DNA of 34,416 nucleotides from Reclinomonas americana ATCC 50394 (Eukaryota): contig PS015092.1 of NCBI GenBank assembly GCA_048213135.1, positions 41,594 to 76,009 on the forward strand, in the 5' to 3' direction. The translations under genes were made by a program, and so were the position numbers. Below are positions 596 to 25,506 of this stretch, piece after piece. Position 1 is the first letter of the stretch; each line of letters starts with the position of its first letter. The notes under the pieces are model-generated. The model did no database searches. It worked only from the letters and a program-made list of their open reading frames with translations, and was not told the DNA's origin.

Positions 596-3500
596 ATGAG
601 TGGCGGTGCTTCTCGTGTGAGTGGTGTGGCGTCTGTGTCGAAGTTTGCGGGGTATTCAACTGCGCCGCCGATTGCCAAGAAGCCGAATCGTTGAGTGAGA
701 GAGAGAGAGGGGGAAGAGCAGAAGGAGAGTGCATCGTCTCTTCTCATTCTGTTCTCTCTTCTTCTCTCACCCTTTCTTCTCCTGTTCTCCTCTTCTCTCC
801 TCTCTTCTATTCCCTCATGTTCTCCTCTTCTCTCCTCCTGATTGTGATAGCACTGGGCACCATGTGTGAGGGTGCAACGAACTGAATGAGTGTCAAAGAG
901 CAGTGAGAGACAAGAGAGAAGAGAGAGAGAAGAAAAGGGTTGAGAAAGAGAAGACTGAGAAGCATTCATGTGCACTCATCTGCTCTCTCTTTCTCTTGTT
1001 CTCTCCTCTTGTCCTCCCCATCTTCTTCTCGCTTCTCTTCTCTGTCCTTGCTTTTCACTCCCTGTTTCTCTTCTCTCCTTCTTCTCTTCTTCATAGCGGT
1101 CTCCGTCCTGCTCTCTGGCACTCATTCACTCACTGTCTCGCTCGTCTTCTCTCTCACACACATGCTGACCACTCACTTCACAAACGCACCCACTTTCCAC
1201 CCAATCACTCTTCTCTCTCTTTTCTCTCACTGTCTGTCGGTTTGCTTCTCTCGTCACTGCACAAGGACGCGCTCATTCTATGCCCATGTTTGCTGTGCAC
1301 TCTCTCACTCACGTTCCAGTCCTCAACACTCTCTTGCTCATCCGCTTGACTGTCTCACTCACACGTTGTCCACGCTCCTTGCTCTCTTACAAGGAAGCGC
1401 CACAGCCTCTCGTTCCTCATTCCCACCTTCCCTCTTGTTTCTCTCCCTTCCTCCTTCTCTCCCTTCTCCTTTCTCACCCGTTCCCGTTCAACACCCTTCC
1501 CTCTCCATTACACCATCCCTGCCTTCTCCTTTATTCTTCCCCAACCTCTCCCTTCCCCTCCCTTCCCCGTCCTCATCCTTCCCCTTCCCCCCATACAGGC
1601 CCCCGCTTCGACCCCCTCCCCGCCTCCCAAGCCAGCATGCGCGGCGGCCCACTGGAACAAGGAACACTGGTTTCCTCAACCCCATCCTCGGCGCCCGCGC
1701 CTCCACACTCCGCCCCCATCATGTACCGCACGGTGCGACCGAGTGAGCTGCAGGCGCCGCCGAAAGTCAACGGTCGCTACGACACCTTTTTCTGGCAAGC
1801 GCAGCAGGCCAAGGTGCAATCGCTGCTGCAGCATGATATCTCCAGGTGCGTCTTCTCTCTCATTCTCTGTCTTGCTCTCCTTCTCCCTCCTTTCTTTCTC
1901 TTTGCTCTCGGTCTCATTCATTATCTCTCTCCCTCTTTGTCTCTTCCTTCTCATATTGCTCTCTTGTCTTCTCTCTTTCTTTCTCTTCCTGTCTTGCCTT
2001 CCTATTCTCTCCCTCTCCCTCTCCTTCTCCCTCTCCCTCTCTCCCTCTCCCCCCTATCCCTTTCCCCTCCCCTCCCCCAACCCCTTCCCCCCTCCTCAGG
2101 TCAGCCACAATCGACGTGCAAGAGGCCCGCGCCGACTCCTTCCGCGACATGCTGGATGAGCTGCACCGTTCGGTGCGCTCAGACAAACCAACCGCCGGCG
2201 CCGTACCACCATCGCATCGCGAGTCGGTGGAGGGCTGCCCGCCGCTGGTGGCACACGTCAGCACCATGCGACACACGGGCGTATCGGTGGCCACGCAGAC
2301 CGACATTGTCGGCGACGTGTACCCCACGTTCTTCTTTGCCGACGCCGGTCACTTGCAAGTGATTGCGCAGCGGCACGGGTATCGCATCACCGTGGAGCAA
2401 GTGGACGGAGAGGTGAGAAGCGCTGCTTACCTCGCCCCTTCTTTCCCCCCTCTTACTCATTTCTTGTGGTGGTCGTGGTGGTCATCAGGGCCCCGTTCGT
2501 CGTCGCAAGGCGCTCCGCTCACTCGGCAAGTCGGCCGCCGCCGGCGGTCGCAAGAGGAGTACCAAGAGCAAGTCGCGAAGCGAGAGTCCCACCGCGCCGC
2601 GTGTGGGTGGCGGCTACGGATATGAGCCCACCACCGATCGCTGGGCGTTGCCGGCACGACCGCGCTATCCCGCTGCGGACAAGGAGAACATGCAACATTC
2701 GTCGTCGCGCGGAAAGCTCACAGACACGGTGGCCTCCATCCCGGCGGAGCCTCTCGTGCGCTCACCGATGGACTCGCTGCGCCAATCGGATCACGCGCTG
2801 ACGCGACAGCCGCCTCCGCAGTCACAGTCGTCACAGAAACAGTCACACAATCGACGCACGCCGGCCGGCATTCTCGTCACACCGGCCACTGCACATGGCG
2901 CGACGCATCAGCAGCACTACGTGCCGATCTCTGCGTGGGAGACCGCGCGCGATTCGTCCGCGACGGCGGCCACGAATGCCGGAGACACATCGAGCATGGT
3001 CACGTCGCCCGACTTTTCGTACTCGGACGGCGAACAGCAACAACCGCAACAACAACAGTCCCAGCACCAGCAGCGCGCCACGCAGCCGCCGATGCGTCCG
3101 TACGAGGAGACTGACCTGCTGCGTCCGATGGCGTCACACACGGAGCCGAGCCGACCGGTCCGCGATCGCCACGAGCGCCGCGCGCAGCCAAAGGAGTCCG
3201 AGGCGGCTCTTGACGGACCGTGGCCGACGGGGGAGGTGCAGCACGATTCGATTTCCGTGCGCCAACTGGAGGACTTTCAGCGACTGCTGCGAGAGCAAGA
3301 GAGAAGGTCAGCACTCTTTTCCCCGCAGTTCACCTCGCTGATTGCTGACTGCGATTCACGTTGCGCCACAGACTGCGCACGGAAGAGACCAATGTGCGAC
3401 TGATGGAGCAGTTGCGACAGGATGAGTGGAAGCGGCAGTTTGAGCATGTGCTTCGCGTGCCCGACGAGGGCGACGAGTCGGATATATCGCTGCTCAGCAC

Positions 3501-4166
3501 CGATCGTGATCGCCACGACGCCCCGCCCACGGCCGCCGGCACAGCAGAGGTGAGTGCAATATTTTATCACATGCACACTCCCTGACAGACGCTCATCCAA
3601 ACCGGCTCCCACAGAGCTCGTGGCAAGGCATCGGTCGCGAGCTCGACGAGCTGCTGCGCAACACGGCTTCTGCGGCCGCATCACTGACGGGCGCCAATCC
3701 ACCACCAGCATCCTCCTCCACGACTACAACAACAACAACGACGACGACGGCAAGCACCATCGCAGCGGGAGCCAACACACGACAGCCACCACCACTGGTG
3801 TCGGCGCCGCCACCACCGCCCAAGTCGCCAGACTCGAGCGGCTCATCGTCTGCGCGTTCCTCGCTCGATCAACTGGAGACGCTGGAGCGCATGCTCGAGG
3901 CGCAGCATCGGCGACTGGTGGAGAAGGGCATCATCAGCGACTCGGCCTCCGACGAGTCGTCACTGGCGAGAGCCGGCGGCGGCGGTGGACGTCCGACGAG
4001 TGCGCCCGCCGCGCAACTGAGGCCACCGCCACCGACATACAATGCCGAGTCGTCGCCTGTGAGTTTTGCCGTGTCGCCACCGGGTCGTTCCGAGGTCGCC
4101 GGTGGTGATTTGTCGCACACGGAGGACGACGACGACGATGATGATGATTACGATGACGATGATTGA
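596..4166 (+). CDS. Hypothetical low-complexity protein with short coiled-coil segments, 6 exons
   Basis: Exons 596-689, 1599-1845, 2100-2412, 2489-3306, 3372-3549 and 3615-4166 join in frame through GT-AG introns. Codons are GC3-rich and the protein ends in poly-Asp then TGA. No domain recognised. Confidence 0.75.
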
Positions 4167-4207
4167 TGACGACAGTGTAATTAACATTCTATCCACGTGG
4201 GTTTCAC

Positions 4208-7200
4208 TTACTTGCCGGCGGCACCCTTGGCCTCCTTCTGCTTCTTGATCTTTTCTGCCAGCCACTTGAAGTAGGCCACGCACTCTTTCTCTGTCCGACC
4301 GACGGCCTCGGCAATCTTCGGCCAGCGGCCGCGATCCGAAGCCGGGAACTGACGCAGAGCCGCCTCCAGGCGCTTGTGCTCGTCCGGCGAGAATTTCTGT
4401 GAGAATGTATATCAGCACCACACAACGGTGTCAACGAAAAAAGAAGGCGGAGTGCACGCAACGGGTGCAGCAGTGACGGCCGACGGACCAGCGGCAGCTG
4501 ACGGTGCGGCGGCGGCAGCAGCAGCGGAGGGTGCCGACGCACTGGCAGCACCAGCCGACGCGGCAGCAGTGGCGGTGGCTGTTGTCGTAGTCGTCGTGGT
4601 GGTCGTCGATGCGGCCGCAGGAGCAGCAGCAGCAGGAGCGGCAGCGGCAGCGGCAGCCGGCTTTGGTGGCGCCGGTCGACCATTGGCAGCGTCCTCTTGC
4701 GCCTGCAATTCGTACGTCGGCACCACATCGGTCGGCACAAACACGTCGGCGCCCTCGCGCGCCTTGCGCGTCAGGTGCGCATCACGGCGGCGGCGCGACT
4801 GCTCAAAGTCATCCGCGTGCTGCTTGACAATCGTGCCCTGTCGAGCCGCAGCATCCATCTCCTTGGTCTTGGCCAGCACCTGGCTGGCCGTCTTTGTGCC
4901 GCCCATGAACTTGGCAATGGTCTCCCAGCGGTTGACGGTGCCTCCGGGGAACTTGGCCACACCCAGCGCCAGCGAGTGCAACTCCTCTTCGTCCCACTCA
5001 TCCGACGGCCGCTTCGACGAAGAAGCCGCCGAAGCCGCCGCACTGCCAGACGTAGGTGAGCCACTGCCGGCCTTGAGACGCGCCACCGCCGACGCCAGGA
5101 CCTCCGGAGCGGCCTCTGTGTGTGTGGAATGTTAGCAAAGGCGGGGGAAATCATCATTGTGTGCATCGCTCACCTCCCGCCGCCGTCAGCTCGCCCTCCA
5201 GCGCCAACAGACCCTCCGTGTCGAGCTTGGAGCACACCAGCTCCACGTCGTCGTATGTGGCCGCCGCCACTGTGGCACGCACCGCCTTGCGGAATTGCTT
5301 CCGCTGCTCCTGCAGACCTCGTCGCTCGGCCTTGGCCTGTCTCCGCACTTTCGCCGCCTACCACGCCATTCAACGTGAGAATCACGTCTGCGTCGGTCTC
5401 TGGCCTTTCTGCACTCACCTCCATCTCCTTTTGCCGCTTCTCCTCGTCCTGCTTGCGGTGGAACTCCTCCCAGTGCTGCTCTGTCTCGCGCTTCTTGGCC
5501 TCCAGCGCCTCCTTCTTGGCCTGCTTGACGGCCGCTCTCCGCTGCTTCTCCGCCTCCTCCATGCGCTTCACGCGCGGATCCACACGCCGCGCCTGTGACA
5601 CCAGTCGCTCCAACCGCTCCGTCTCCGCACGTCGTCGCTTGGTGCGAGACTTCTCATTCTGCCGCTCCATCCATCGTCGCTCCTCCCGGAACTCGGCCTT
5701 GCTCGTGTCGTGCTCGTCGCGCGTCACAAACGTGCGCCACGAGCGGAACGAGAACCAAAAATCGTAAAACCGCGCCACATCGTCCAACGACGTGCTGTCG
5801 TCGCCCAACTTGGGCACCTGCTCCGGGAAGCACGTGGCGCACCACTGTGCGTTGCGCTCAAACACCGGTCCGTATTCCGCACAAAACTCGGCCACATTGT
5901 CGCCAAACTCCAGATCCGCCTCGGGGATGCTATCGTCAAAGTAGGGGTCGTGCGAGTCGTACACGCAGCGCGTCGGTGCGTGTGACAGCACTTCGAAAGC
6001 GCGCTTCACGCGCAAGAACGACGAGTCGTCAATGTCCTCCATGGCCGTGGCGCCGAACTCGGCCTCCGACAGTTTGTCGGGGTGCGTCGCCAGAACGGAG
6101 GCTCGGTCTGCGACAGAGGGGGAAGGGGGAGAGAGGAGGAGTGTGAGGGGAAGGGTGGGGAAGGGAGAAGGGGAAGACATGGGGGAAGACAAGGGGGAAG
6201 ACAAGGGGGAAGAGAACGGGGGAGAACGAAGGAGGAAGAGGAGGGTAGAGAAGGAAGAGAGGGAGAGAGGGAGACGAGGGAGAGAGGAGACGAGGGAGAC
6301 GAGGAGAGAGGAGAGAGGAGAGAGGAGACGAGGAGAGAGGAGAGAGGANNNNNNNNNNNNNNNNNNNNAAGACAAGGGGGGAAGACCGAAGGAGGAAGAC
6401 AAGGGGGAAGACAAGGGGGAAGACAAGGGGGAAGAGAAGAGAGGAGATCATGGGGACGAGAGGGGGGAAGAGAAGGGGGAAGACCGAAGGAGGAAGACAA
6501 GGGGGAAGACAAGGGGGAAGACAAGGGAGAAGACAAGGGGGAAGACGAGGGGGAAGAGAAGAGAGGAGATCATGGGGACGAGAGGGGGGAAGAGAAGGGG
6601 AAGGGCAAGGAGGGGAGGGCAAGGAATGGAGGCGGGGTTGAGCAAGGAAAGAGGGAAGACAATGAAGACAAGGGGGAAGACGAAGGGGGAAGACAACGAG
6701 TTCTTGCCAGTCCACGCAACATGCATCCTTCAGCTGCTCCTGCGTCGCACGCCATCTCAAGTGCGACAGTCCCAGCGTCTCATAAAAGTCCGGCTCGACC
6801 TTGTAATCCTCCGAGTCACGGTCCGGGAACGGCTTCCACTTGAGACCGACACCAGCAGCGGGCACTCGCGAACTAGTGGACGAGGCTCCATATCGAGCCT
6901 CTGAGCACGCGCACATGCACAAGTGATTCAGAAAACAAAATCGTTCTGTAGATGCGACTGTGTAAATCACCTTGTCGCTTCTCTCGTCGCTTTGCTCGTC
7001 GGGCTTCGGCGCTCTCCCCGTCTGCTTCATCATCTGTGTCACTATCGGACGACGAGTAAATGTCGAGCAATCCACTGCTGCTGCGATGCAGGCGCCGTTT
7101 CAGCTTCTCGTATGCGTCTCCAGCGGCCTCTACATAGCGCTGTGTGTGCGCCCCTGGTTGAATGAGAGAGAAAAAATTGAAGTGTGTGAGTTGTTGAATC

Positions 7201-7352
7201 TGCACATGTGTGAGATGTCACACACACACAAAACACACGAAACAGATGATTTCAGAGTGGATGATGCCGCCGGGCTCGTTGGGGTCGCGAGTCCACTCGG
7301 GACCTGGAGGCAGAATCGCCAGCATTGGCTTTGTTTCGCTCTCGGCCTCCAT
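4208..7352 (-). CDS. DNAJC2: DNAJC2/MPP11/zuotin-family ribosome-associated J-protein with two SANT/Myb domains
   Basis: Exons 7352-7244, 7153-6971, 6900-6721, 6107-5419, 5357-5174, 5115-4463 and 4396-4208. Contains the J-domain (DFYETLGLSHLRW...YRASVLATHPDK), the zuotin homology region (FYDFWFSFRSWR...REERRWMERQN) and SANT repeats (WDEEE...FPGGTVNRWETIA; FSPDEHKRLEAALRQFP...RWPKIAEAV). The start codon is less certain. Confidence 0.92.
6170..6700. repeat. Purine-rich 12-bp minisatellite (GAAGACAAGGGG) with larger duplicated blocks, in a DNAJC2 intron
   Basis: Repeated gaagacaagggg units. The block gaagagaagagaggagatcatggggacgagagggg occurs twice (about 6431 and 6553). Confidence 0.9.
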
Positions 7353-9005
7353 GTGCGAAATCTGATGTCCTGTGCGTTGGTGGGACAGGTGAGGCAATGT
7401 GGAAGTGGAAAGGAAGCCGCTCTTTGATGGAGTGCCAGTGCAGGCAGTCAGTGTATCTGTGAGTGTGCGTGTCAAGCGCGTTTTCTCTCAGCCCGCAGCT
7501 CAAGCTGGACGGAAATGCCACAAAAACCAGAACCAAGCGCTTAAGCAAACAATCTCCCAACCGCAACAGCTGCGCCGCAGCCTCAGGGCAACTAGAACCA
7601 TTGCGTCGCTACTGCAGCACCCAGCTTCAACGAGTTCAGCGTCTACGTAGGTCGACACCATTTGCGCCACGAAATCCTTTCGTGGCAACACGCGCGCGCT
7701 TGATTGGCTTTGTCTCCTGAAAGGGAAGATGACTGTTGGAGATGATTTATCTATGTGTTGTATATTGTTGGTGTGCCAATGTTCATTGTCGGCAAGGGAT
7801 TTGTCGGCGATTGTCGCATTATAGGAAAATGGTAAATGAAGTGTTTTGTTTGCTTGACGGCAGCATTGCTCTCGGCTGCATCGCGGATCAGAGTGAACAA
7901 CTCAAGCAGCCTTCTCCCCGTCGTTGTTGTTGTTGTTTTTCGTCTTTACCAATGCATACATCTCACACTCCTCCACGTGCACGCGCGCAATCGTCATNNN
8001 NNNNNNNNNNNNNNNNNNNNNNNNNNNNNNNNNNNNNNNNNNNNNNNNNNNNNNNNNNNNNNNNNNNNNNNNNNNNNNNNNNNNNNNNNNNNNNNNNNNN
8101 NNNNNNNNNNNNNNNNNNNNNNNNNNNNNNNNNNNNNNNNNNNNNNNNNNNNNNNNNNNNNNNNNNNNNNNNNNNNNNNNNNNNNNNNNNNNNNNNNNNN
8201 NNNNNNNNNNNNNNNNNNNNNNNNNNNNNNNNNNNNNNNNNNNNNNNNNNNNNNNNNNNNNNNNNNNNNNNNNNNNNNNNNNNNNNNNNNNNNNNNNNNN
8301 NNNNNNNNNNNNNNNNNNNNNNNNNNNNNNNNNNNNNNNNNNNNNNNNNNNNNNNNNNNNNNNNNNNNNNNNNNNNNNNNNNNNNNNNNNNNNNNNNNNN
8401 NNNNNNNNNNNNNNNNNNNNNNNNNNNNNNNNNNNNNNNNNNNNNNNNNNNNNNNNNNNNNNNNNNNNNNNNNNNNNNNNNNNNNNNNNNNNNNNNNNNN
8501 NNNNNNNNNNNNNNNNNNNNNNNNNNNNNNNNNNNNNNNNNNNNNNNNNNNNNNNNNNNNNNNNNNNNNNNNNNNNNNNNNNNNNNNNNNNNNNNNNNNN
8601 NNNNNNNNNNNNNNNNNNNNNNNNNNNNNNNNNNNNNNNNNNNNNNNNNNNNNNNNNNNNNNNNNNNNNNNNNNNNNNNNNNNNNNNNNNNNNNNNNNNN
8701 NNNNNNNNNNNNNNNNNNNNNNNNNNNNNNNNNNNNNNNNNNNNNNNNNNNNNNNNNNNNNNNNNNNNNNNNNNNNNNNNNNNNNNNNNNNNNNNNNNNN
8801 NNNNNNNNNNNNNNNNNNNNNNNNNNNNNNNNNNNNNNNNNNNNNNNNNNNNNNNNNNNNNNNNNNNNNNNNNNNNNNNNNNNNNNNNNNNNNNNNNNNN
8901 NNNNNNNNNNNNNNNNNNNNNNNNNNNNNNNNNNNNNNNNNNNNNNNNNNNNNNNNNNNNNNNNNNNNNNNNNNNNNNNNNNNNNNNNNNNNNCCCCTCC
9001 CACAG

Positions 9006-9626
9006 TCACCGCCCATGGAAGCCACCCTCAGCTGCAGTCTGGAGGAGCTCTACAACGGCACGAAGAAGCGCATGAAGATCACTCGCCAGGTGCTCAACTC
9101 TGACGGCCGCACGACGCGACCGGAGGAGAAGATTCTGGAGATTGATGTGCGCGCCGGCTGGAAGAAGGGCACGAAGATCCGCTTCGAGCGCGAGGGCGAC
9201 CAAGGACCCAACATCATCCCCGGTGACATTGTGTTTGTCATCAACGAGAAGCCGCACCCGAGGTTCACACGCGAGGGCAACAACCTCATCAACAAGGTCA
9301 ACTGCTTCCTCGTGCAGGCGCTGACGGGATTCACTGTCGAGCTGGTTACGTGCGATCGGTTTCTCTCTCTCTCTCATTGCTTTCTTCTTTGCCTCACACT
9401 CTCCCTCTCCCATGTGCAGATGACCCTCGACAACCGCAAGTTGACCATCCCCATCACCGATGTGGTGTACCCGGGCTACACCAAGGTGGTGCGCGGTGAA
9501 GGCATGCCTGTCTCCAAGCACCCCGGCACCAAGGGTGACCTCATTCTCAAGTTCAACCTCGTCTTCCCGCAATCGCTCTCCGAGGAGCAGAAGCACGCGC
9601 TGACGCAGATTCTGCCGGCGCAGTAG
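9006..9626 (+). CDS. C-terminal half (DnaJ_C domain) of a class B Hsp40, DNAJB1/4/5-like
   Basis: Exons 9006-9344 and 9420-9626: SPPMEATLSCSLEELYNGTKKRMKITR...GWKKGTKIRF..EGD...GEGMP..K..G.KGDL...FP. Lies on a small gap-flanked contig (8994-9702). Confidence 0.9.
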   Translation, partial: SPPMEATLSCSLEELYNGTKKRMKITRQVLNSDGRTTRPEEKILEIDVRAGWKKGTKIRFEREGDQGPNIIPGDIVFVINEKPHPRFTREGNNLINKVNCFLVQALTGFTVELVTCDRFLSLSHCFLLCLTLSLSHVQMTLDNRKLTIPITDVVYPGYTKVVRGEGMPVSKHPGTKGDLILKFNLVFPQSLSEEQKHALTQILPAQ

Positions 9627-9849
9627 CTGCCATTATTATGACTTTCTTTTTTCTTTCTGGTGGAATCGGGAGTGTGTGCGTGCTTGAGCGCGGTCGTTGA
9701 CGNNNNNNNNNNNNNNNNNNNNGGAGGGGAAGGGGGGAGGGACAAGGAAGTCGATTAACAATGAGTCTCTCTGTCAAACAGCGAATGTGCGTAAACGTGT
9801 TCCCTCTGACGACGCATCTTTCTGTCTCTCGCTCTCTCTGTGTGTGTAT

Positions 9850-10260
9850 GCAAGTGACGGCAATGCGAAACAGAAAGTATGCGGAAGTTGTCTTCCTCTC
9901 TCTTACTCTGCGCGTGTGAACATATGAATGCCATTTCTCCTGTCGACTCGGTGTGTGTCTATCTCACTCACACACACACTCTCTCTCGTTCTGTGTGCGC
10001 GCGTGACGGCGAATGTGAAACAAAAGCAGGAAGTACGTGGAACTCTCTTCTGCGAGTGCGAATGGGAACATGCGACTCATTTCTCCTCATGAAGTACCTG
10101 CCGACTCGAGAGTGCGTGTGTCTCTGTATATACTATCTCACTCACTCACTCTCTTTGTGCGTGTGTATGCGTATGTGTGAGCACGTGACGGCAAATGAAA
10201 CAGAAAGCATGTAGTAGAATGACTCTCTCTGCGCGGGTGCGTGGGGAATATGTGAGCGAC
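9850..10260. repeat. Degenerate tandem repeat of about 165 bp (about 3 copies) in a DNAJB intron
   Basis: gtgacggc(a/g)a(a)tg..aaaca(g/a)aa recurs near 9854, 10003 and 10185. Confidence 0.65.
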
Positions 10261-10278
10261 TCATTCCCCGATGTCGAA

Positions 10279-10335
<57 letters not shown>

Positions 10336-10581
10336 TGGCGACTGTGACACTGCAAGTGTGTGGCATTTGCCCCCCCTCTCTCTCTCTTTCTGTTCGTGTC
10401 TGTACGTGAGCGACTCAATCCCCCTAATACGTGCTTGTGACTCAAGAGTGAGTCTCTTTGTCTCTGTCCTCTCATTGTGTGTGCGAATGTGAGACAGAAA
10501 GCGCGAGTTCGTCGACTCTTTTCTCTCTCCCTCTCCCTCTCTCTCTCTTCTCTCTCTCTCAATTCCCCCCAACTCACGCAC

Positions 10582-11485
10582 CTGCCGACTCTGCCTCTGT
10601 GCACCCCGCGATCCGCCGCCCATGGAGAAGCCGCCCATGCCGGGGAAGCCGCCACCCCACTCATCGCCACCACCCATGCCGCCGAAAGCACCAAACGGAC
10701 TGCCCTGGCCAAACATTTGCGCAAACAAATCATTGGCATCCATGTGTCCGAACGAGAATCCACCCATGCCACCGCCACCGCCGCCCGGCATGCCGCCTCC
10801 CTTCAGTCCATCCTCGCCGTACTGATCAAAGACCTTGCGCTTCTCGGCGTCACTTAGCACCTCGTATGCCTCGGCAATCTCCTTGAATTTGCGTTCCGCT
10901 GTGTGTGTGTGATGAGGAGGAGAGAGAGTGTGAGAATATGACACACAAAGGGCGACTTGCGTTCCTCTGCTCTCTTGCATCAAAGTGACAGAAAAGCGTT
11001 GGCTATCTGCAGCATGTGAGAAATGATCGGCACCTGCAATGACTACGTGCCTCGTATGTCTCAATCCTGCTCGACGATCGATCCTTCTCTCACATCAGAA
11101 GTGACAAAGAAGCGTCTCCGCCTGCACTCTCGATCTGAACGACTGCACGACTTCACCCGGGGCCATAGCCTAACTCTCTCTCTCTCTCTCAGTGTGTGTG
11201 CCTGTGTGTGTGAGAGAGAGAGAGTACAGAATACGTCAGACAGACGAACGAAGCTGAAGTTGCATTCTCGATCTGTCTCTGACGTCTGCATACATCATCA
11301 CACACTCACACAATGTACAGCCGCCTTATAACAAAAGCGCTCGGCATGCTGCCTTCTCTCTCCCTCTCTCTCTCNNNNNNNNNNNNNNNNNNNNTCGTCG
11401 TACTACTACTACTACTACTACACACACACACCAACTAACTACGTACGACGCCGTCCTTACTAAACTAAACGACGTCGTCGCGTCT

Positions 11486-11551
<66 letters not shown>

Positions 11552-11991
11552 ATCTCGCTCTCTCTCTCTCAGTCTCTGCTCTCTCGTTTGTTCGATTTGA
11601 CACCAGACTTCTCTCTCCTTCCCCTTTCCGTCCCCTTTCCCTCTGTTCTCCCATCCCTCCCCCATCCCTCTTCCATGTATCACCTTCCTCCTTGTTCTCG
11701 GGGTTCCTGCAGACACGAGGAACGGGGGTCAGTCAGGTGCAAAAAATAGGCAGGCCGACCTTGCTGCGGGGGTCGTCAGCTCACCGATCGGGGTGCCATC
11801 GGAGCGCCAACTTGCGATACGCTGCACGCATAAACAAACAAACATACGCAACAGTTGAAGTCAGCATGCAATCCACGCCGGTCCATCCAGAGAGAGAGAT
11901 GCCATTAAAAGTGTGCGTGCGCACCTTTCGTAATCTGCTCGGCAGTCGCCGACCTGTCCACGCCCAACAACTTGTAAAAGTCACGGCCCAT
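10582..11991 (-). CDS. N-terminal half (J-domain plus G/F- and G/M-rich linker) of the same class B Hsp40
   Basis: Exons 11991-11925, 11821-11785, 11706-11684 and 10898-10582 give [78 protein letters not shown]...RQSRQ, followed by a phase-0 donor. Confidence 0.92.
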
Positions 11992-12323
11992 TGTGCTCTG
12001 CACACAGAGGAAGACAACAAAAGAGTGTGAGACGTCATTGCGCGCACACACACACACTCTTTCTGCTCTCTTGCTGTGTGCACATTGAACAGCATTGCAT
12101 GCACGACGATTCTCTCACACTCACTCTGTGTGTGTCACGTGGGGAGAATCGCCACAAACCTCTCTGCAACACGCGAAATGAAAACTGATTGCGTGACGTC
12201 ATCGTCGAAATCGCGGCCAATTCGCAACTCATTTGTGCAACTAATTCGCGAGAGCGCGCGTTCTGTGCTTGACAAAACAACACATACAATCTCTTGCCTT
12301 GTTGATTGCAAGTTACGTCGACA
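11992..12323. promoter_or_regulatory. Divergent promoter region with a CRE palindrome TGACGTCA (12194-12201), CACGTG and CCAAT motifs
   Basis: Motifs seen directly between the Hsp40 ATG and the putative start of the next + gene. Function is untested. Confidence 0.3.
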
Positions 12324-13754
12324 ATGCGCACATTGTTGCAGAGTGAAGTGAGGAATTTGGGCTATATTTGGCCTCTGGAGGCTCACAGTCGACTCTGCGC
12401 AACTCACATGCACTCGTTCACGAGTCGTCTATGCGCACGTGTTCTCTCGTTCTTCCTGTGCACCTGCCACTCCTCACATCGTCAACTGCTATTTTTAGCT
12501 TCTCACATGTGACAACTCTCTCTCACACACACGATCACATACACACAACAGTGCAGTCTCTCACCTGTACTTGTGCACACACTCTTTCTTACTCTCTCCC
12601 TTCTTCCCCACTTGCACTTTACACCTCACTCACTCTCTCTGTCTCTCTCTTCTCTTCTTCATTCTCCTTCTCTGCATCCTTGGCTCTTTCTCTCTCTCTC
12701 TCTCTCATTCTCTCTCTCTCTCTCTGACACACCCTGCTCTTCCTTATCTTCTTTCTCCGCACCCTCACCCTCACCCTCTCCCTTCTCCTCTCTTCACTCA
12801 CCCTTCCCCTTTCCCTCACCCTTTACCTCCCTCCCCAAAACAGTGTGCTCCCTGGACCCCTCCCCTCTACTCGCCTTCCGGGCGGGACTCGACGACAAGT
12901 GGAACACGCGCGCGGCCTGCGCCAGTCGCGTGGTATCCATGCCCTATGGCGTTCTCCCCGAGAGCGGCTACCACTGCGTCGACTTGGGCGTGGTGGACAG
13001 CTCCGCCAAGACGACGACGACGGCGGTGGAGTCGTTCTGTCCGCTCCCGCACCCGCTGTTTCGCTCGGTGACTCGCCGCTCGTACATTGCATTCACGCGG
13101 GAGAATGGCGCGTGGACGCGCATATGCTGGGCGGCGGGAGCGCCGACGCAGAGCAAGAACACGGCCAGTGGGCGCGTGGAGGTGGCCGTGCGTGGGGCGA
13201 CGGCGGGTAGTGTCGGCGTGACGTTGGAGATGCGCCGGGGCACGGCGCGCTCGGCCACGTCGCTCGCCAAGTTCCTGGGTAGGGGCCCTTAGGTCGCGAT
13301 TTCGGCCATCCCCGTGGAGGTGGCCCTTCTTGATGATGCGGGCACGTTGGTGGACGTGCGCCCGCGCCCCGATTTGGCCGAGCTGCTCGGCGCCGACCCG
13401 CAGTCCCCGCCTGCACCACTGCCGCCGTCACTGCCACTGCCGTGTGTTCCCGACTGGACGGCGTGGTCGGTGGTGGAGGACTCGCTGCCGGATCTCGACA
13501 CTGGCTGGCGTGATGATGACGATGACGACTTGTGCACAGTGCACTTCCCGATGCATGTCGGGGCCGCGCAGTGTGGAGCGCAGAGTAGTTGTTCAGCGCA
13601 GCCGTGGGACGCCGCGCCGCAGCCGTCCGTGCCGTTTTTCGACGATGTAGTGGGAGACCAGTTGTGACTATCTGGCGGCGGCGGCGAGCAGGAGGAGACC
13701 CTGTTGCTGCTGATGGATGATATTATGGATGATGACGGCTGTCGCCGCTGGTAA
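12324..13754 (+). pseudogene. Hypothetical gene with in-frame TAG (13290-13292) and TGA (13665-13667): pseudogene, readthrough gene or sequence error
   Basis: A strong polypyrimidine tract and CAG acceptor at 12843. One frame with GC3-rich codons runs 12844-13754 through both stops to TAA. The possible first exon 12324-12387 has a weak GTCGAC donor. Confidence 0.5.
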
Positions 13755-13824
13755 AGTGTCACACGTTGGATAACAACACGCTATACAATTCCATTCAATC
13801 ATTATGTACATGGCCACCGGCCAG

Positions 13825-14852
13825 TCACTTCAGCTCGCTCTCCCCCTCCACCATCTCGTCGTCGTCGCTGTCGAGATGCGCACGACTCGCACCCTCCCTT
13901 TCCCCCTCCCCCTCGCCCTCCTCCTCCATTTCTGCGGAAACTACCACGTCCTCCTCCTCCTCCTCCTCCTCGTCATCTCTCTTTTCGACTTGCCGCTGCG
14001 TGCTGTCTGTGACCATTGGAGGATCGTCCATGATCTCGATCGGCTCCGGCTTCCACGTCACCGTGCGCCGCCGATTGGTGGGCGACGGTGCCGGCGAGCC
14101 CTCCCCGTTGCAGAGAATCGACACGATGGCCGGCGGTGACAATCGATGCTCCGTGTACAAGGGTGCGGCTGCCGTTGCCGGCGAAACAGCAGTTGTGGTG
14201 GTGGTGGTGGTTGTCGTCGAGGAAGCAGGCGCCGCCGCTCGCACCGGTGTCTCCTCCACCACAGTGGCGGTCGTGGCAGTGTGTGACGTGCGTCGACCAA
14301 ACACCGCTCTGCCACACCACCGTGAGCGACGAAAACATCAGAAGCACGAAATGTGATACGCTGCACCTCCATAGTCGCTTGAATATGAAGCGCACCAGTC
14401 CCGGCAGCGACAACAAGCAGCAGCCAGACAGAATGCACACGCCCAGAATGCGCAACGATCGCGCCAGTTCCGATATGACACCACGGATCTGCACAGAACG
14501 GTCAGCAGCAGTTGATCGCCAAATGAAGAAACATAAGGAGAGAGAATCAACCTCCCGCATGCCATCCACGCCCATTCGCTGCCCCATGTGCGGAAACGCC
14601 TCTGTGGACACACACACACACACACCATAAGCACACACCAGCGCGACCACAAGAACAACAGCAGAGACACACACACCAGCAAGAATGCGACTGGCATCGA
14701 CTCCGACATTACGAGCAGCGCGCTCCCCAAATGCATACAGACTGTTTGTTGTCGCACCACTCCCGTCGACCACACCAGCCGCAAGCCCGCGGATCAACGA
14801 GATGACACCTCCTCCTCCTCCTCCTCCACTGCTCCCGCCACTGGCAACAGCA
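13825..14852 (-). CDS. Hypothetical membrane protein with acidic C-terminus (5' exon(s) unresolved)
   Basis: Exons about 14852-14626, 14601-14552, 14488-14367 and 14308-13825. Two hydrophobic segments (ILAGVCVSAVVLVVALVCAY; ILGVCILSGCCLLSLPGLV) are followed by a Thr/Pro-rich region and a poly-Glu tail. Confidence 0.55.
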
Positions 14853-14917
14853 CTGTCGCATATACATTGTTCCGTGTGAGCGAACGATGGGAGATGCGAG
14901 GAGATAGAGGGAAGGGA

Positions 14918-14919
14918 GT

Positions 14920-15004
<85 letters not shown>

Positions 15005-15260
15005 TGTGTGCAAGTGTGTGTAAGTGTGTGTAAGTGCGTGCAGCTGTGTGGAAGTGTGTGCAAGTGTGTGGAAGAGTGTGCAAGTGTGTGGAAGAGTGTG
15101 CAAGTGTGCGGAAGTGTGAATAAGTGTGCGGAAGTGTGCGCAAGTGTGTGGAAGTGTGTGCAAGTGTGTGTAAATGTGTGTGTGTGTGTGCAGCAAGTGT
15201 GTGGGAGTGTGTGGAAGTGTGGGTAAGTGTGCGCAGGTGTGTGCAAGTGTGTGTAAGTGT
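14918..15260. repeat. (TG)n microsatellite grading into a 10-bp minisatellite (C/G)AAGTGTGTG
   Basis: Direct inspection: a long TG run, then about 25 decamer units. Confidence 0.9.
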
Positions 15261-15785
15261 GTCTTTGTGTTATCGATGAGCGGGATTCGGCTCTCTGTGT
15301 GTCATACGCAACGATGGGCGTGATCGGTTGTGTGACTCATCCTCTGCTTACACACACACAGATGAGCACAGAGACACTGAGTGTGAGGAAGAAGAGCACC
15401 ACACTCAAGAAAAACCATTGTCGACACTGTGCAGCACAGAGTGGTGATACTCATCGTGCAGCAAACGATCGCGAATTGATCTCTGAGAGAGAAGTCAGTG
15501 ATAAGCTGCACAGTGAGCAGACAGAGAGAAAGACGAAACAGCTGCGTGGCGCAAAGACGCCATAGGACAGTTACCTGTGAGGCTCGCTTGCACGCAGATT
15601 GTCTTCTGTCCCATCGTGTGTCACTTTCACGGTGCGTGCTCACATACACTGGTGCTGCTGTGTGTGAGTGCAACAGCTCACGTGTGCGCCACAGAGCATC
15701 GCGTTTGAAAGACAAAAAGGCGTGCGGTGCAAAGTGACTCTCTTTGTCTCTCTTGTGAGTGAGTGTGAGTGTGTGTGCCAGCATC

Positions 15786-18700
15786 ATGGATTTGGTTGGG
15801 CAGACGTTCCGTGTGGGCAACAAGACCATTCGTGTGCAGCGCAAGCTCGCAGAAGGCAAGTCTCTGTCACACGTTGATTGATGGAGCACATTTTTTTGTG
15901 TAAGAGATTGATGAGAGTGAGAGAGAGAGAATGACGTGTGTTTGTGTTTGCGTGAGTGTGCGCGCGCAGAGAGTGAGAGAGTGAGCATGAGCCAAGAGGA
16001 GGTGATTTTTTTGTGTGTATGATGTGGGGTGGGTGGCGTGCTCAAACGGTCGGTGATGCATCTCCGCCACTTGAGCACGCACTTTGCTCTCTCACACTCT
16101 TGTCACTCTCCCTCTCTGTCATTCTCCATGTCTGTCTCTGTCTCTTGCTCTGTGTGCGTGCGTGCGTGCTTCCGTCCATGCGCACTTGCTTACTTGGGCG
16201 AATTTGAGACCGCAACTGTCGTCGTCATCATCAGCTCACACACGCGCGCGCACACTGATCGCACTCTCTGTCTGTGTGCGCGTGTCACTCCCTCTCACTG
16301 TCACCATCTGTCTGTGTGATCGCTGTGGCAAGAGAGGAACACTGCACGAAACGAACATGTCCCATCTGTCACACTCACGCTCTCTCGTTCTTCACGCAGG
16401 CGGCTTCTCTGTCGTGTACCTTGCGGTCGACACGTTGCGTCCCTCTCACTCTTGCCTCACTTACCAACGCATTCACAGTTCGATATCTAATGTTGTCATG
16501 ATCTCTTCAGTGCCACCGGCTATGTGTACGCTCTCAAGCGCATGAATGCCGCCGATCGCGAAGTCCTTGCCGACCTCAAGAATGAGATCGCTTTTATGGT
16601 TCGTGTGTGTGTGTGTGTGTGTGGGCGGCAGCGGTGAACCGAGCATTGGGCAGTTGGGTTGGTTGGCTCATTCATTCTCCATGCGATATGTGTGTGCTAT
16701 GTGCTGTGCTGTGCTGTGCTGTGTGTGCAGAAAAAGTTTGGCTCGTATGCATACGTGGTGGAGATGTATGCGGCGGAGATCAAGCCGCGAGGAGACGGCG
16801 GTGCGGAAGTGTACATTCTGATGGAGTTGTGCGAAGGTGATTGCATGTGGAACACGCAGCTGCTTCGTGCCTGTGTGTGACTTAACCCTCCCCGGTCGCT
16901 GTTGGCAGGCGGCACGATGGTCGATGTGATGAACACTCGCTTGACCAATCGGTTCTCGGAGCAGGAGGTGCTGCGCATCTTTTACGATACGTGCTTGGCT
17001 GTGGCGCACTTGCACGATCAGGATCCGCCAGTCATTCACCGCGATTTGAAGGTTGGACTCGTCGCGTCCCTTTTCCTCCCTTCTCCCGCATTCATCTCAT
17101 CCACAACCCACTCGCAGGTGGAAAACATTTTGGTCGGCAACGACGGCAAGTACAAACTGTGCGATTTTGGAAGCTGCACGACTGAGAAATTCGAGAACCT
17201 CACCAACAATCGCGAGCGCATGCAAGCCGAGTACGAGATCGAGAAGAAGACGACGCCACTGTACCGCGCCCCGGAAATGATTGACTTGTACTCGCGCAAG
17301 CCGATCAACGAGAAGGCGGATATTTGGGCGCTCGGCTGCTTGCTGTACAAGCTGGCCTACTTCAAGATGCCCTTTGAGGAGTACCCCATGGCCATTGTGA
17401 ATGCTCGTCTCAGCTTCCCCGCGACACCACGCTACTCGCAAGNNNNNNNNNNNNNNNNNNNNNNNNNNNNNNNNNNNNNNNNNNNNNNNNNNNNNNNNNN
17501 NNNNNNNNNNNNNNNNNNNNNNNNNNNNNNNNNNNNNNNNNNNNNNNNNNNNNNNNNNNNNNNNNNNNNNNNNNNNNNNNNNNNNNNNNNNNNNNNNNNN
17601 NNNNNNNNNNNNNNNNNNNNNNNNNNNNNNNNNNNNNNNNNNNNNNNNNNNNNNNNNNNNNNNNNNNNNNNNNNNNNNNNNNNNNNNNNNNNNNNNNNNN
17701 NNNNNNNNNNNNNNNNNNNNNNNNNNNNNNNNNNNNNNNNNNNNNNNNNNNNNNNNNNNNNNNNNNNNNNNNNNNNNNNNNNNNNNNNNNNNNNNNNNNN
17801 NNNNNNNNNNNNNNNNNNNNNNNNNNNNNNNNNNNNNNNNNNNNNNNNNNNNNNNNNNNNNNNNNNNNNNNNNNNNNNNNNNNNNNNNNNNNNNNNNNNN
17901 NNNNNNNNNNNNNNNNNNNNNNNNNNNNNNNNNNNNNNNNNNNNNNNNNNNNNNNNNNNNNNNNNNNNNNNNNNNNNNNNNNNNNNNNNNNNNNNNNNNN
18001 NNNNNNNNNNNNNNNNNNNNNNNNNNNNNNNNNNNNNNNNNNNNNNNNNNNNNNNNNNNNNNNNNNNNNNNNNNNNNNNNNNNNNNNNNNNNNNNNNNNN
18101 NNNNNNNNNNNNNNNNNNNNNNNNNNNNNNNNNNNNNNNNNNNNNNNNNNNNNNNNNNNNNNNNNNNNNNNNNNNNNNNNNNNNNNNNNNNNNNNNNNNN
18201 NNNNNNNNNNNNNNNNNNNNNNNNNNNNNNNNNNNNNNNNNNNNNNNNNNNNNNNNNNNNNNNNNNNNNNNNNNNNNNNNNNNNNNNNNNNNNNNNNNNN
18301 NNNNNNNNNNNNNNNNNNNNNNNNNNNNNNNNNNNNNNNNNNNNNNNNNNNNNNNNNNNNNNNNNNNNNNNNNNNNNNNNNNNNNNNNNNNNNNNNNNNN
18401 NNNNNNNNNNNNNNNACTTGAAGGACCTGATTGCGTACTGCTTGGAGACGGATCCGATCAAGAGACCCGACATTTGGGAGTTGGTGGACCGTTTGTGCAA
18501 AGTGCGCGTGTGCCCGTACCCGCTGAAGGTATGTCGTGAGTCAAACAGACAAGGAGAGGGATCGGCAATGGCTGACTCTCTCCCTCTGTACTATCGGCGT
18601 AGCGATTGCCTCAACCTCGCGACGGCGTCAGCATCGACGATCTGGTTGGCCACCGCAAGGAGGAGAAGGCCGGCAAGAAGGCGTCGGCAGCACTTTTTGA

Positions 18701-21700
18701 CAAGTTGGAGTGGGCCGAGGGCGGCGCCAGCGGCAGCGGCAGTGCCAGCACACCAAGTTCGGCGGCGCCTCGTCAGCAGATTCAATGTTTCGCCACTTGC
18801 TCTCTCNNNNNNNNNNNNNNNNNNNNNNNNNNNNNNNNNNNNNNNNNNNNNNNNNNNNNNNNNNNNNNTCTCTCTGGTTTTTTTGTGATCTGCGAGGGTG
18901 ATTCTCATCTCTGCACGTCCAGTGAGCGGCGGCGACGACGATGACGATCGCCCAACACGTCCGTCCGGTCCGAGCCGCCGAGCGGCTCCGGCGGCGGCCG
19001 CAGCTGCACCGGCTGCCTCGGCGCGCTCCAAGGCACCTCGCGCACCGCCACAAAATCACATGCTTCTCGACTGTTGCGTGTGACTTGATTGTGTGTTGTT
19101 GTTGCGTGCACCACAATCGCCCATTTCGTCTCCACGCAGTCGGCGATGACTCCAAGAAGGACGATGGGGCCGGTGCGGGTGGTGGCAGTCACGACTTTGA
19201 CTCGATCTTTGAGACGGGTGCCAAGACAGCAGCAGCGGCCGCGGCAGCTGCCACTCCGAGCAGGGCAGGCAAGGTGCCGGTGGCCGCCGATGCGCACTTT
19301 GACGACGACTTTGGTGGCTTCCAGGAGGCTCCACCAGCTGCTCGCAAGCCCACTGCCACGGCGAGCATGCTGGTCAGCCGGGCCACAGCAGCTGTGGTGG
19401 AGGATTCGTCACCAGACACTCCGCAGTCTTCGGGTGGTGCGCAGCAGGTGCCGTCGGACGATGAGGGCGACGAATTGGATCTCGATTTTGGTGCCATTGG
19501 CTCGCGCAATCAGCGCAAGGTGAGATTGCTGGAGGAGGTATTCTCTTCATCATTTCCATTTCCATCTCACCGCCTGTGCAGAAGGACGACAAGCCCAAGA
19601 AGAAGAAGAAGGTGGCACGCGCAACACATCGCTCTGCTGCCTCATTCGACGGTGGTGCTGCGTCATCGGCCAATAGCGCCACGGCGACGGCGGCCGACCC
19701 AGCGTCACCAAACTCGCCGTCGGATGGCCTGTTGCACTCGCGCAGTGCGACAAATCTCGCCGCTGCCCCGTCGCTGCCGAGTGACGAGCGGTCGGCGTCA
19801 CCTTCTGAGGAGATGCCACCACCAGCGGAGCGGCAAGAGAAGCAGCCGCGCGGCGGTTTCCTCGGCCTGCTCGACAAGGCCGGCAACTTGATTGCCTCCG
19901 GGTTCGACAAGCTCGGCTACGTGGCCGATCTGGCCACCTGCGTGTTCTCCTCGGAGAAGGCCAAGTGGGTCATCAAGGCCACGTCGCGCAAGGTCACGGC
20001 GCCCAAGCAAAAATACGTGCGCAGTTGAGTACTGTGTGTGAGAATGGGGGAAGTTGGGGAGGGAGGCGTATGGTTAACCGTGTTTGGTTACTGAACATTG
20101 TGTTGCTGCATGACGCACAGTGATTGTGGTGGATGCGTGGCAGAACAAGGAAATCAAGCCGTTCTATGACTTTTTGGAGGGCAAGCGGCCACTCTTTGGC
20201 AATCACATTGTGGCGTTCAAGACGCTGGTGCTGATTCACCGCGTCTTGCAAGAGGGACCACCAGTGGTGCGTCGTCGGCGGGGAGAGGATTCGATTGCGG
20301 TGCGGTCACCAGCCGCTCATGTTGTTGTGCACTCTGCAGGTCGCTCGCAACAGCTTTGACCATCGCGCCGTGTTGGAGCAAGTTCGCTTCCACTACTCGC
20401 AGTCGGAGCACTGTGCGTGGCATTTGGTTTTCGATTTCTGTGGGAAAATCTCTCTCTAACCGCGCACGCAGCCGACGATGATGGTATCCCGCACCTGGTG
20501 GTCAAGTACTCCTCCTACCTGCTGCGTCGTATGAGGTTCCACCACGAAAATCCGCAGTTCGAGGGCAACTTTTCGCTGCAGGGTGAGTGGAGGGAGAAGA
20601 GGGGGAAGGGTATTTTGGGAGAAGAGTTGGGAGAAAAGGAGAGAGACACAAGCGGAGTGAGGAAAGCAAAGAATGGAGAGACAAGAGAAGAATGAGTTAA
20701 ATATCGCGAGAGAAGTAAGAGTGCAGGAATAGGAGAGGGCAGAATAGGTGTGCGTGAGAGAGAGAGAGAGAGAACGAAAGCAAGAGATGAGCAGAAAGTA
20801 AGGAGCAGAGAAAATGAGTGAAGGGAGACAACGGGCGGGAATGGGAAGGAAAGGAGAGAAGAACAGCGGAAGGATCTAAGAAAGAGAAACAGGAGAAGAA
20901 TTACCAGGAGCCGGTAATGTGACAGCAAGCGTAGACAGTGAGGGAGAAATGAGTGAAGGGAGACAACGGGCGGAGTGGGAAGGGTGAGAGAGAGGAACTG
21001 CTGAAGGAACTAAGAAAGAGAAACAGGAGAAGAATGAACAGGAGCCAGTTATGTGGCAGCAAGCAGAGCGTGCATGATAGCGAGGAAGGTCGTACGAGAA
21101 GCAGATCGTGAGGGAAAAGGGAAAGAGGATACCTGAGAACGATGGAGTATGTAAGAAGACCAGAGGGTGTGGATGAATTGAAGAGAAGATAGACAGGCAG
21201 AAGGAAAGAATAATTGTGTGAGTGAGTGAGAGAGAGAGAGAGAGAAAGACAGCAAGTGAAGCACATTGTGAAAGAGAATGGCATGATGAGCGGGATTTTT
21301 GAGGTGCGAGATGAGAAAACAGAAGGGAGTGAGTTGTCTGTGTGCGTGTGTGACTGTTTCTTTCTCTCTCTGTCTCTCTCTCTCTCACTCTCATTCACAC
21401 TCTCTCTCTGTGTGTGTGTGTGTTTGTGTGTTTGTGTGTTTGTGTGTGATAGAGAGAGGGAGAGAGACAAATTCAGTGCGCTGCGTGAATATGGTGTACG
21501 TGCAGCAAGAGACTCTTTATGTATGCAGGACTTTGCTATTAACTCTCTCCCTCGCGTTCATACAGCTTACCTGCGCGACAAGTACCCGAACATGTCACTG
21601 GCACCCAATGCACCACCAGATGGCAGCTTCAACCGCGATGTCAACATGGGTCGTGCGCCAGTGAGGTGCGCTTTTTTTCGTTATTCTCACCATCCTGCCC

Positions 21701-24700: not shown

Positions 24701-25076
24701 GTGGGGAAGAAGATGAGAAGAGACTGACGTGGAGTTGTGCAAGAAGAAGGCATGATACTCGAAGGAGTGGAGAGTAAGAGTGTTGAAATAGACGGGAAAG
24801 GAGATAGGCAGGTGTTGCTTGAGATTGATATGAGAAGACTGAAAGGGGTACGATGTACAGTAGCCTTGAGGATCGTGTAAGATTGCGCTCATGCATCGTT
24901 CTTTTCTGCTTTGGCTGCGCAGTCATCTGGACGCCAGGCTGATGCGGCGCATTCGAGTTGCGTTTTAAATCGTCGTCAATGTGGGTTACGGGCTGGAGAA
25001 AAACTGACGTGTACTGTCGCTATGTGCAGCTCCGAGCAAGTCACAAGCGGCAGCCAAGTTCGAGGATATTTTCTGA
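15786..25076 (+). CDS. NAK-family (AAK1/GAK/Ark1-Prk1-like) Ser/Thr kinase fused to a Sla2/HIP1-type ANTH domain and a SMAP-like ArfGAP domain
   Basis: Exons 15786-15855, 16400-16433, 16511-16598, 16731-16836, 16909-17051, 17118-17442, 18416-18528, 18603-18771, 18923-19072, 19140-19519, 19582-20023, 20121-20266, 20340-20412, 20472-20582, 21566-21665, 21735-21879, 21960-22038, 22112-22251, 22317-22517, 23366-23546, 23612-24054, 24923-24956 and 25030-25076 stay in frame. Kinase motifs: LAEGGFSVVY, YALKRM, HRDLKVENIL, KLCDFGS, TTPLYRAPEMIDLY. ANTH motifs: KATS...APKQKYVR, AFKTLVLIHRVLQEG, RMRFH..NPQFEG. ArfGAP motif: CADC-x16-CHKC-x4-R. Confidence 0.85.
20812..21064. repeat. Direct duplication of about 135 bp inside an intron of the kinase gene
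   Basis: aaatgagtgaagggagacaacgggcgg...ctaagaaagagaaacagga...caggagcc.gt.atgtg.cagcaagc occurs at about 20812 and 20947. Confidence 0.85.
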
Positions 25077-25506
25077 GGACTCTCTCGCCGCTCAACTCCC
25101 TAGACAAGATTGTGATTCTTTTCATCCTCGCTGTGTGTTGTTCGTACGTGTCTTTGCTTGTGTGCTGTTTTTGTGTGTGTTATGAGTACTTATGGCCATC
25201 TTTTCGTCTCTCTCTCGCTGCTTTCCTTTGTTGCTGCTACTGCTGCTTCTTTGTGCCGTTGTGGTGACTTCATATCTGTTTGTTTTGTCGGATCCCCGCA
25301 CAATGGATCTGGTGCCATTTTTTCGCCGTAGCTGCGTGAGGGATTGCATTCCGTTCATTTGAGAGGGAAGAATCGCGAGACACCAGAGGTATGTGCCTCA
25401 CAGATGCTTTTCGAGATGGATGCATCACTCCGCGACAACGAAACAACAGATAAAGAAGAAAGAAAAAAGTAAAGGAGCAGAGAAAACGAGAGGAGTAAAA
25501 CACGGC

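Follow-up and report, generated by a model that had tools for sequence, protein, structure and literature searches.

A GTTNNGT donor subclass tied to exons without a final G in a 34-kb nuclear scaffold, and its possible reading in a shifted U1 register

Introduction

Shifted and bulged registers of pairing between U1 small nuclear RNA (snRNA) and the 5′ splice site (donor) are established at human sites, where the validated noncanonical registers of every kind account for 1.5% of 201,541 sites in the catalogue of Tan et al. (2016, NAR, PMC4856993). At the mammalian shifted-register sites (Roca and Krainer 2009, as presented in PMC4856993) the intron starts with GU, the rest of the consensus is displaced by one base and the cut is kept at GU. 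In the bulge +2/+3 and bulge +3 registers, predicted at 68 and 51 human sites, respectively (Roca et al. 2012; PMC4856993), one extra intronic nucleotide (nt) separates GU from the paired block at +4 to +6. In humans such registers matter mainly for the interpretation of mutations. Here, a 34,416-nt stretch of contig PS015092.1 of Reclinomonas americana ATCC 50394 (hereafter the window) was analysed for a class of donors reading GTTNNGT, which shares with both described arrangements the one-base displacement behind an intact GU. Whereas the shifted register is exceptional in the human data reported, the class accounted for 6 of 36 well-supported donors (17%) of this one window and was tied to exons without a final G.

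Other lineages with odd donors have been described in a preprint on U1–donor matching (bioRxiv 10.1101/2022.06.08.495308), which reports GUUUGU donors with the U1 5′ end ACAAAC in Entamoeba and a GUGCGC preference with a candidate U1 5′ end ACGUAC in Mastigamoeba. These cases show that U at +3 can be accepted and that a changed U1 5′ end can match odd donors, but as described there each lineage has one consensus in the normal register (+5G, +6U), whereas in the window two registers seem to occur within the same genes. The canonical donors of the window (GTGCGT, GTGCGC and GTGAGT) merely resemble those of the +4C-preferring lineages of that preprint, and the words 'GUUG', 'bulge' and 'register' are absent from its text as available. 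In delta-3 tandem donors, such as that of STAT3 exon 21 (NAR 2024, PMC11162779), two candidate cuts are separated by 3 nt, and noncanonical registers of U1/U6 pairing are proposed; in the window, unlike in such tandems, the downstream candidate is not GT and homology backs a single cut. Diplonemid donors, (G)/GTATG (a slash before an intron marks the exon–intron boundary throughout), do not match the class. The 'shifted register' literature was, among the papers listed, human, mammalian or drug-related, with one tunicate study mentioning it in passing, and an abundant shifted donor class was not in print within the literature searched. The abundant class in the window would be a novel form of the register known from rare human sites.

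Donor set and placement of the heptamer

All results are based on the 34-kb window, homologous proteins and published papers. The window, a eukaryotic nuclear scaffold, is of gapped draft quality (N runs at 10 places), and its GC content swings between coding and non-coding stretches. A codon log-odds table was trained on seven obvious coding stretches and used in a dynamic-programming gene finder, which scored codons, required introns to have GT...AG ends and to reach a minimum length, and contained no donor matrix. The conserved genes were curated by eye in three frames and the junctions were then tested against homologues. A total of 42 donors was modelled in this way, independently of the 49 counted in the original prediction; 27 of them were fixed by homology (tier 1), nine belonged to introns of typical length flanked by coding sequence (tier 2) and six were weak (tier 3).

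The original prediction had listed nine GTTNNGT donors as normal donors of this genome with one extra T after the GT, used after exons that lack a final G. All nine heptamers were present (690+, 20024+, 6720-, 4462-, 16434+, 19073+, 24957+, 9345+ and 7243-, the sign giving the strand), and the bases preceding them were c, a, t, c, c, t, a, g and t, respectively, with eight of the nine following a non-G. As donors, five were fixed by homology and one (4462-) was probable, while 690+, 7243- and 24957+ were left as candidates. The matrix-free gene finder alone recovered four of the nine (6720, 4462, 9345 and 20024); the small exon before 16434 was skipped by it.

Over the whole window the heptamer showed no enrichment, with 54 matches confronted with 53.8 +/- 7.5 in shuffled sequences, and therefore any signal lies in its placement. 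The two strands contain 3879 GT sites, of which these 54 read GTTNNGT; given this background, its presence at 6 of 32 GT donors had a binomial probability of 4.8e-6. For the strict form GTTG(C/A)GT, found at 5 of 32 GT donors, the probability was 7.9e-8. Five of the 27 tier 1 donors belonged to the class, and among the donors without G at -1 four were class members and one was not, against one and 21, respectively, among those with G at -1 (Fisher p = 0.0014). When tier 2 was included, 6 of 36 donors (17%) were in the class and the corresponding counts were five and one without -1G against one and 29 with it (Fisher p = 9.3e-5), bearing out the predicted link to a non-G exon end. Among all 42 donors, the class supplied 8 of the 11 that lacked G at -1, the count in the original prediction having been 8 of 10. 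The estimate of about a fifth of introns given there is drawn from a single 34-kb window and from three genes.

The displacement concerned several positions at once, as had been proposed. In tiers 1 and 2, G at -1 was found in 1 of 6 class donors versus 29 of 30 other donors (binomial p = 2.4e-7) and G at +5 in none of the six versus 26 of 30, while G+6/T+7 occurred in all six. T at +3 was coupled to G+6/T+7, the latter pair being present in 6 of 9 donors with +3T and in 0 of 27 donors without it. The G frequent at +7 of other donors was found by hand count at +8 in the class. Expressed as a local consensus starting from the last exon base, G/GUG(C/A)GU(G), the heptamer of the subclass is the same sequence with the second base changed from G to U.

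Such a pattern could in principle arise with no special register at all, if recognition beyond GT were loose and relied on proteins or on intron length, the pattern being a by-product of a small sample or of mutation. Several fixed donors in which +5G or another consensus base is missing (among them GTGATT, GTGATA, GTGCAT and GTCTGT) agree with this explanation, as do the origin of the sample from three genes and the tight range of short introns, 13 of the 15 with listed lengths in the kinase–ANTH gene described below measuring 59–97 nt, which could help to define introns. However, the coupled shifts were each significant on the homology-fixed junctions alone, with p = 0.0014 for the loss of -1G, 0.0007 for the move of G from +5 to +6 and 0.0007 for the move of T from +6 to +7, which makes loose recognition a decidedly improbable account. 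The donor subclass is very probably real in this window; the putative subclass is about a sixth of the donors modelled there and is tightly tied to exons without a final G.

Class donors fixed by homology

Homology fixed five of the nine sites at /GTT, namely 6720-, 9345+, 16434+, 19073+ and 20024+, and at each of them a cut 3 nt downstream was rejected. GTT is exactly one codon, so the reading frame alone cannot separate a cut before GTT from a cut after it. The junctions which the original prediction had considered fixed by protein motifs, i.e., those in the J domain (6720), the kinase (16434, VD/TATG) and the ANTH domain (20024, KYVR/MIVV), were confirmed by the profile or alignment scores given below.

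The intron 6108–6720 (minus strand; donor cat/GTTGCGTGG) splits the J domain of a DNAJC2 (zuotin-like) gene extending on the minus strand from about 7352 to 4208, with the junction reading LKDA[Y]RASVLATHPDK (the residue of the split codon in brackets here and below). Only a single acceptor was usable, with the next exon starting at 6107. The search with the large DNAJC2 exon revealed 111 homologues, the best with 52% identity over 49% of the query and the others with at most 49% identity, and a profile was built from 70 of them. A total of 120 stop-free splice models of the gene was scored on this profile and every top model used /GTT at 6720. The best such model reached 494.4 bits, compared with 487.4 bits for a GC donor at 6717, 3 nt downstream, so that 7.0 bits were lost by the alternative cut.

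The second member, a 75-nt intron at 9345–9419 (plus strand; donor ctg/GTTACGTGC), lies in the C-terminal domain of a DNAJB-type chaperone and was the sole class member following G. It was the only frame-compatible GT–AG pair, and residue numbering ran unbroken over the junction in four solved DNAJB13/DNAJB1-type chains (9fqr_HA, 8wzb_B, 3agx_A and 2q2g_A). The exon 9012–9344 aligned up to residue 248 of the DNAJB13 chain 9fqr_HA with one query residue over, and the exon 9420–9623 aligned from residue 251 with one query residue ahead. With these two spare residues the junction is exactly continuous.

The remaining three fixed members are located in one long plus-strand gene and were scored in BLOSUM62 units against a 1409-residue relative, P0112. 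The 77-nt intron at 16434–16510 (donor cac/GTTGCGTCC) interrupts the kinase N-lobe (GGFSVVYLAVD[T]ATGYVYALKRM) with a junction gapless against P0112 (FLASNVSTGRVYALKRM); its score of 817 at /GTT fell to 806 when the donor was moved 3 nt downstream. For the 67-nt intron at 19073–19139 (donor act/GTTGCGTGT; HMLLD[F]GDDSKK), which is placed in a disordered linker, the respective scores were 1049 and 1038. Its split codon makes the F of LLDFGDD, matching LIDFDGN in P0112, and the segment LLDFGDD...DFDSIFE aligned to LIDFDGN...DFDVLF of P0112 with a local score of 53, a value reached by 0 of 500 shuffles (26.2 +/- 4.6). The 97-nt intron at 20024–20120 (donor gca/GTTGAGTAC; KQKYVR[M]IVVDAW) stands at the start of the ANTH domain; its junction was gapless against P0112 (KQKHVRRILVELW), scored 1049 versus 1038 for the variant cut 3 nt downstream and was also picked by the gene finder.

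The sixth member, a 66-nt intron at 4397–4462 (minus strand; donor ccc/GTTGCGTGC), precedes the SANT2 exon of the DNAJC2 gene (KFSPDEHKRLEAALRQFP...). The acceptor at 4396 was set by the SANT2 reading frame, and the only GT donors leaving an intron of at least 40 nt were 4462 (66 nt) and 4477 (GTCACT, 81 nt), of which the gene finder also chose 4462. As the linker is unconserved, homology does not fix the donor; 4462 is a probable class donor. All six introns began with GT and ended with AG, and the joined frames were open and colinear with the homologues.

The data bear directly on the possibility that the boundaries were mis-modelled, the true donors being GC, GA or other sites 3 nt downstream (GTT/GCGT, GTT/GAGT), or that the assembly was in error. 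The blindness of the frame to a 3-nt move, the existence of one true GC–AG intron (15856, see below) and the 10 N runs of the gapped scaffold speak for such an explanation. Against it, the extra residue was rejected at 6720 by 7.0 bits, at 16434, 19073 and 20024 by 11 units each and at 9345 by the continuous numbering, and the forms GTTACGT and GTTTCGT would require donors starting with AC or TC. As to assembly errors, their recurrence solely at donors after non-G seems implausible, and mis-modelling or misassembly as a whole can be regarded as highly improbable.

Some further placements were considered and rejected. A cut one base later (G/TT...) would need introns of the form TT...GA or TT...GT, as reasoned from the sequence without scoring, and would put C in the place of two residues, the conserved Y of the 6720 junction and, at 19073, the F found also in P0112. 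At 20024 the resulting R would agree with P0112, and the cut was rejected there on the intron ends. Minor-class introns have the U12-type donor form /RTATCCTT, which none of the nine donor sequences resembled. A family of mobile introns was also dismissed, since the class introns, judged by eye, were alike only at the donor. The best explanation is that these are ordinary U2-type GT–AG introns, apparently forming a distinct donor subclass N/GUUG(C/A)GU(G).

Register of pairing with U1 snRNA

The best-supported reading is that the class is recognised by U1 pairing shifted by one base, with the cut staying at GT, to which a probability of about 0.45 was assigned. The U1 snRNA would bind the heptamer as usual and would thereby stand one base off the register of the cut, so that U1 C9 would pair with the intron +1G rather than with the exon -1G and U1 A7 with +3U. 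The preference for -1G would then be lost because +1G takes the U1 slot of the exon -1G, and the last exon base would be freed from the G requirement. The U6/U5 steps that follow would set the cut at the only available GU. The extra U at +2/+3 would presumably have to bulge for G+6/U+7 to meet the ACAGA box of U6, and this would hold under any model of U1 pairing.

Duplexes were predicted with the standard U1 5′ end AUACUUACCUG (Tan et al. 2016). Among the 30 other donors of tiers 1 and 2, 27 were folded and all 27 paired at offset 0. The class donors 16434, 19073, 20024 and 4462 were predicted to pair at offset +1, 9345 gave a mixed result (0 and +1) and the pairing of 6720 was spurious. At 20024 a full shifted helix was predicted, with C9 on +1, a mismatch at C8 and -7.1 kcal/mol.

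Several points weigh against the shifted reading. The duplexes assume the standard U1 and not the sequence of the host's own U1, and with the standard 5′ end the GUUGCGU members paired at only +0.5 to -1.4 kcal/mol. The donor at 20413–20471 (plus strand; act/GTGCGTGGC), the only homology-fixed donor without -1G outside the class, is of the canonical form and paired more strongly, at -2.2 kcal/mol; its placement agrees with the 33 residues found by hand count between EGPP and LVVKY in both the gene and P0112. Because the GUUGCGU members are weaker than 20413, shifting brings no energetic gain that would explain the preference for non-G exon ends. Moreover, A stands at the exon -1 position in 1 of 6 class donors versus 19 of 30 at -2 of canonical donors, although a shifted register would lead one to expect these two positions to be alike. 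The sample is also small, with six good cases from three genes in one window.

The one-base displacement of G and U would be explained equally well by a bulge, in which U1 pairs normally at +1G/+2U, the extra U at +2/+3 is bulged out and G+6/U+7 pair with U1 C4/A3. This register has a counterpart in the 68 predicted bulge +2/+3 sites of the human catalogue, and a duplex predicted for 9345 (ctg/GTTACGTGC) fits it: C9 with -1, C8 with +1, A7 with +2, C4 with +6 and A3 with +7. However, 9345 was the only class donor fitted by this description. A bulge leaves C9 available for the exon -1 position, so -1G would be expected to be as common as elsewhere or more so, contrary to the 1 in 6 versus 29 in 30 observed; the known bulge registers do not predict such a loss. 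For the class as a whole, a bulge is therefore considered unlikely.

The weakness of the GUUGCGU pairing bears also on a different proposal, that of a second or lineage-specific U1 with a 5′ end complementary to GUUG(C/A)GU, such as one carrying A at position 8 where C is usual; a variant snRNA had also been offered in the original prediction. Since GUUGCGU pairs very weakly with the standard U1, such a variant is a live alternative, if a quite unlikely one. The frequent C at +4 of canonical donors (10, versus 15 with A) recalls lineages with altered or unusual U1–donor matching, co-evolved U1 5′ ends being reported for Entamoeba and Mastigamoeba in the preprint cited above, and with an ACGUAC-type 5′ end the predicted duplexes of the GUUGCGU donors lay at offset +1 and had energies of -4.2 to -6.1 kcal/mol. 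On the other hand, the same preprint reports a standard U1 in most lineages whose donors are odd. An Rfam scan of the window at gathering thresholds gave no family reaching its score, and so no U1 gene in the window at these thresholds.

Taken genome-wide, the proposal would be that two donor registers operate side by side, G/GUG(C/A)GU and, for about a sixth of introns, N/GUUG(C/A)GU, the latter read through a U1 shifted by +1 or through a dedicated U1 variant and freeing the last exon base. This wider claim is put forward tentatively, as somewhat doubtful in its full extent. If about one sixth of the donors of a genome used a noncanonical register, the register would be an evolvable genome-wide variable. 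It would be the first case of a noncanonical U1 register as a major, selected class rather than a rare exception, and it would offer a natural system of hundreds or thousands of sites in which U1 binding is separated from the U6/U5 choice of the cut site. In practical terms, donor models scoring only +1 to +6 and expecting -1G/+5G will miss or misplace introns of the class. The pattern also directs attention to the 5′ end of the host's U1.

Comparator donors and candidates without firm support

Three donors with +3T remained outside the class, and all followed G and kept +5G. The donor of the intron 16599–16730 (plus strand; atg/GTTCGTGTG, GTTCGT) kept G/T at +5/+6, and those at 17052 (plus strand; aag/GTTGGACTC, GTTGGA) and 22039 (plus strand; atg/GTTTGGCGG, GTTTGG) kept +5G only. 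Each of the three junctions was gapless against P0112. As the +3T donors after G keep +5G, the extra T is not simply tolerated everywhere. An apparent frameshift near 22060 was resolved by the P0112 alignment as the 73-nt intron starting at 22039.

The only non-GT donor among the 42 belonged to a GC–AG intron at 15856–16399 (plus strand; strong donor aag/GCAAGTCTC), which the P0112 alignment revealed. To read KLAE[G]GFSVVY the intron must be in phase 1 here, no GT fits and the assembled protein was free of stops. Three further donors (6970-, 11683- and 16837+) read aag/GTGAT(T/A) and, with T at +5, form a small recurrent type without the near-constant +5G.

As mentioned above, three of the predicted class donors were left without firm support. 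The candidate at 690–696 (plus strand; atc/GTTGAGTGA) follows a 31-codon open reading frame (ORF; MSGGASRV...KKPN) that scored only +8.1 bits and whose in-frame TGA stop falls within the heptamer, and the proposed downstream extension or next exon scored -5.5 to -7.5 bits. No Pfam match was found for four exons of this gene, and the search of representatives with its 272-aa exon gave one low-complexity match only.

The candidate 90-nt intron at 7154–7243 (minus strand; tct/GTTTCGTGT) at the DNAJC2 N-terminus was ambiguous, as six GT donors (7243, 7238, 7234, 7229, 7225 and 7223) fit acceptors at 7153 or 7139. On the profile, 7234 reached 494.4, 7225 reached 494.2 and 7243 reached 491.8 bits as the donor of the first DNAJC2 intron, the rivals scoring 2.6 and 2.4 bits higher than the class candidate; the three donors appear equivalent by these scores. 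The third candidate, a weak one, was a 71-nt intron at 24957–25027 (plus strand; cga/GTTGCGTTT) before a last exon ending in ..AAAKFEDIF and a stop. The exon end KFEDIF resembles the C-terminus of P0112 (..DHFDDVFA) in a comparison made by eye and unscored, and the 34-nt exon upstream of the donor was unsupported.

The strict heptamer GTTG(C/A)GT occurred 13 times in the window, of which five copies were tier 1 or 2 donors, two were weak candidates, two were intronic (11852- and 19101+), one was exonic (30301-) and three were unassigned (29447-, 15312- and 31093+). The copy at 29447- is located upstream of the start of a WD40-repeat gene, one of two tandem paralogues (25425–28001 and 28279–29598, both minus strand) which were conserved even upstream of the start codon. 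In this upstream region one paralogue reads GTTGCGT and the other GTTGCAT, with CAC where a CAG acceptor would be, and for these two reasons 29447- probably marks no intron.

Host genes and neighbouring loci

The relative P0112, which carries kinase, ANTH and ArfGAP domains, was the best match of the kinase exon, with 66% identity over it. A tblastn search of the window with P0112 indicated that the apparent kinase, ANTH and ArfGAP genes are one gene, extending on the plus strand from 15786 to beyond 24054, and the alignment gave gapless support to 16 of its junctions. The joining of an NAK-type kinase with ANTH and ArfGAP in one gene, colinear with P0112, is an unusual fusion of three endocytic modules. 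Metagenome contigs scanned with P0112 contained 28 loci with 24–38% identity, too distant for a comparison of intron positions.

Most introns in the window were short (for example 4397–4462, 5358–5418, 17052–17117 and 19520–19581). Among the introns of the kinase–ANTH gene with listed lengths, the longer ones measured 132, 544 and 983 nt, and the longer introns were rich in CT, CA and GA microsatellites.

The DNAJB-type chaperone gene appears split in the scaffold. Its C-terminal half (8994–9702, plus strand) occupies a small contig with N runs on either side, and a DNAJB-type J domain with a G/F region is encoded just downstream on the minus strand (10578–11996). Probably this contig was placed into the scaffold in inverted orientation; otherwise the inversion of the locus is real.

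Two coding-looking loci, 1721–4166 (plus strand) and 12900–14300, contained no Pfam domain, and for the former no homologue was found among 1.84 billion representatives. Both are putative lineage-specific genes.

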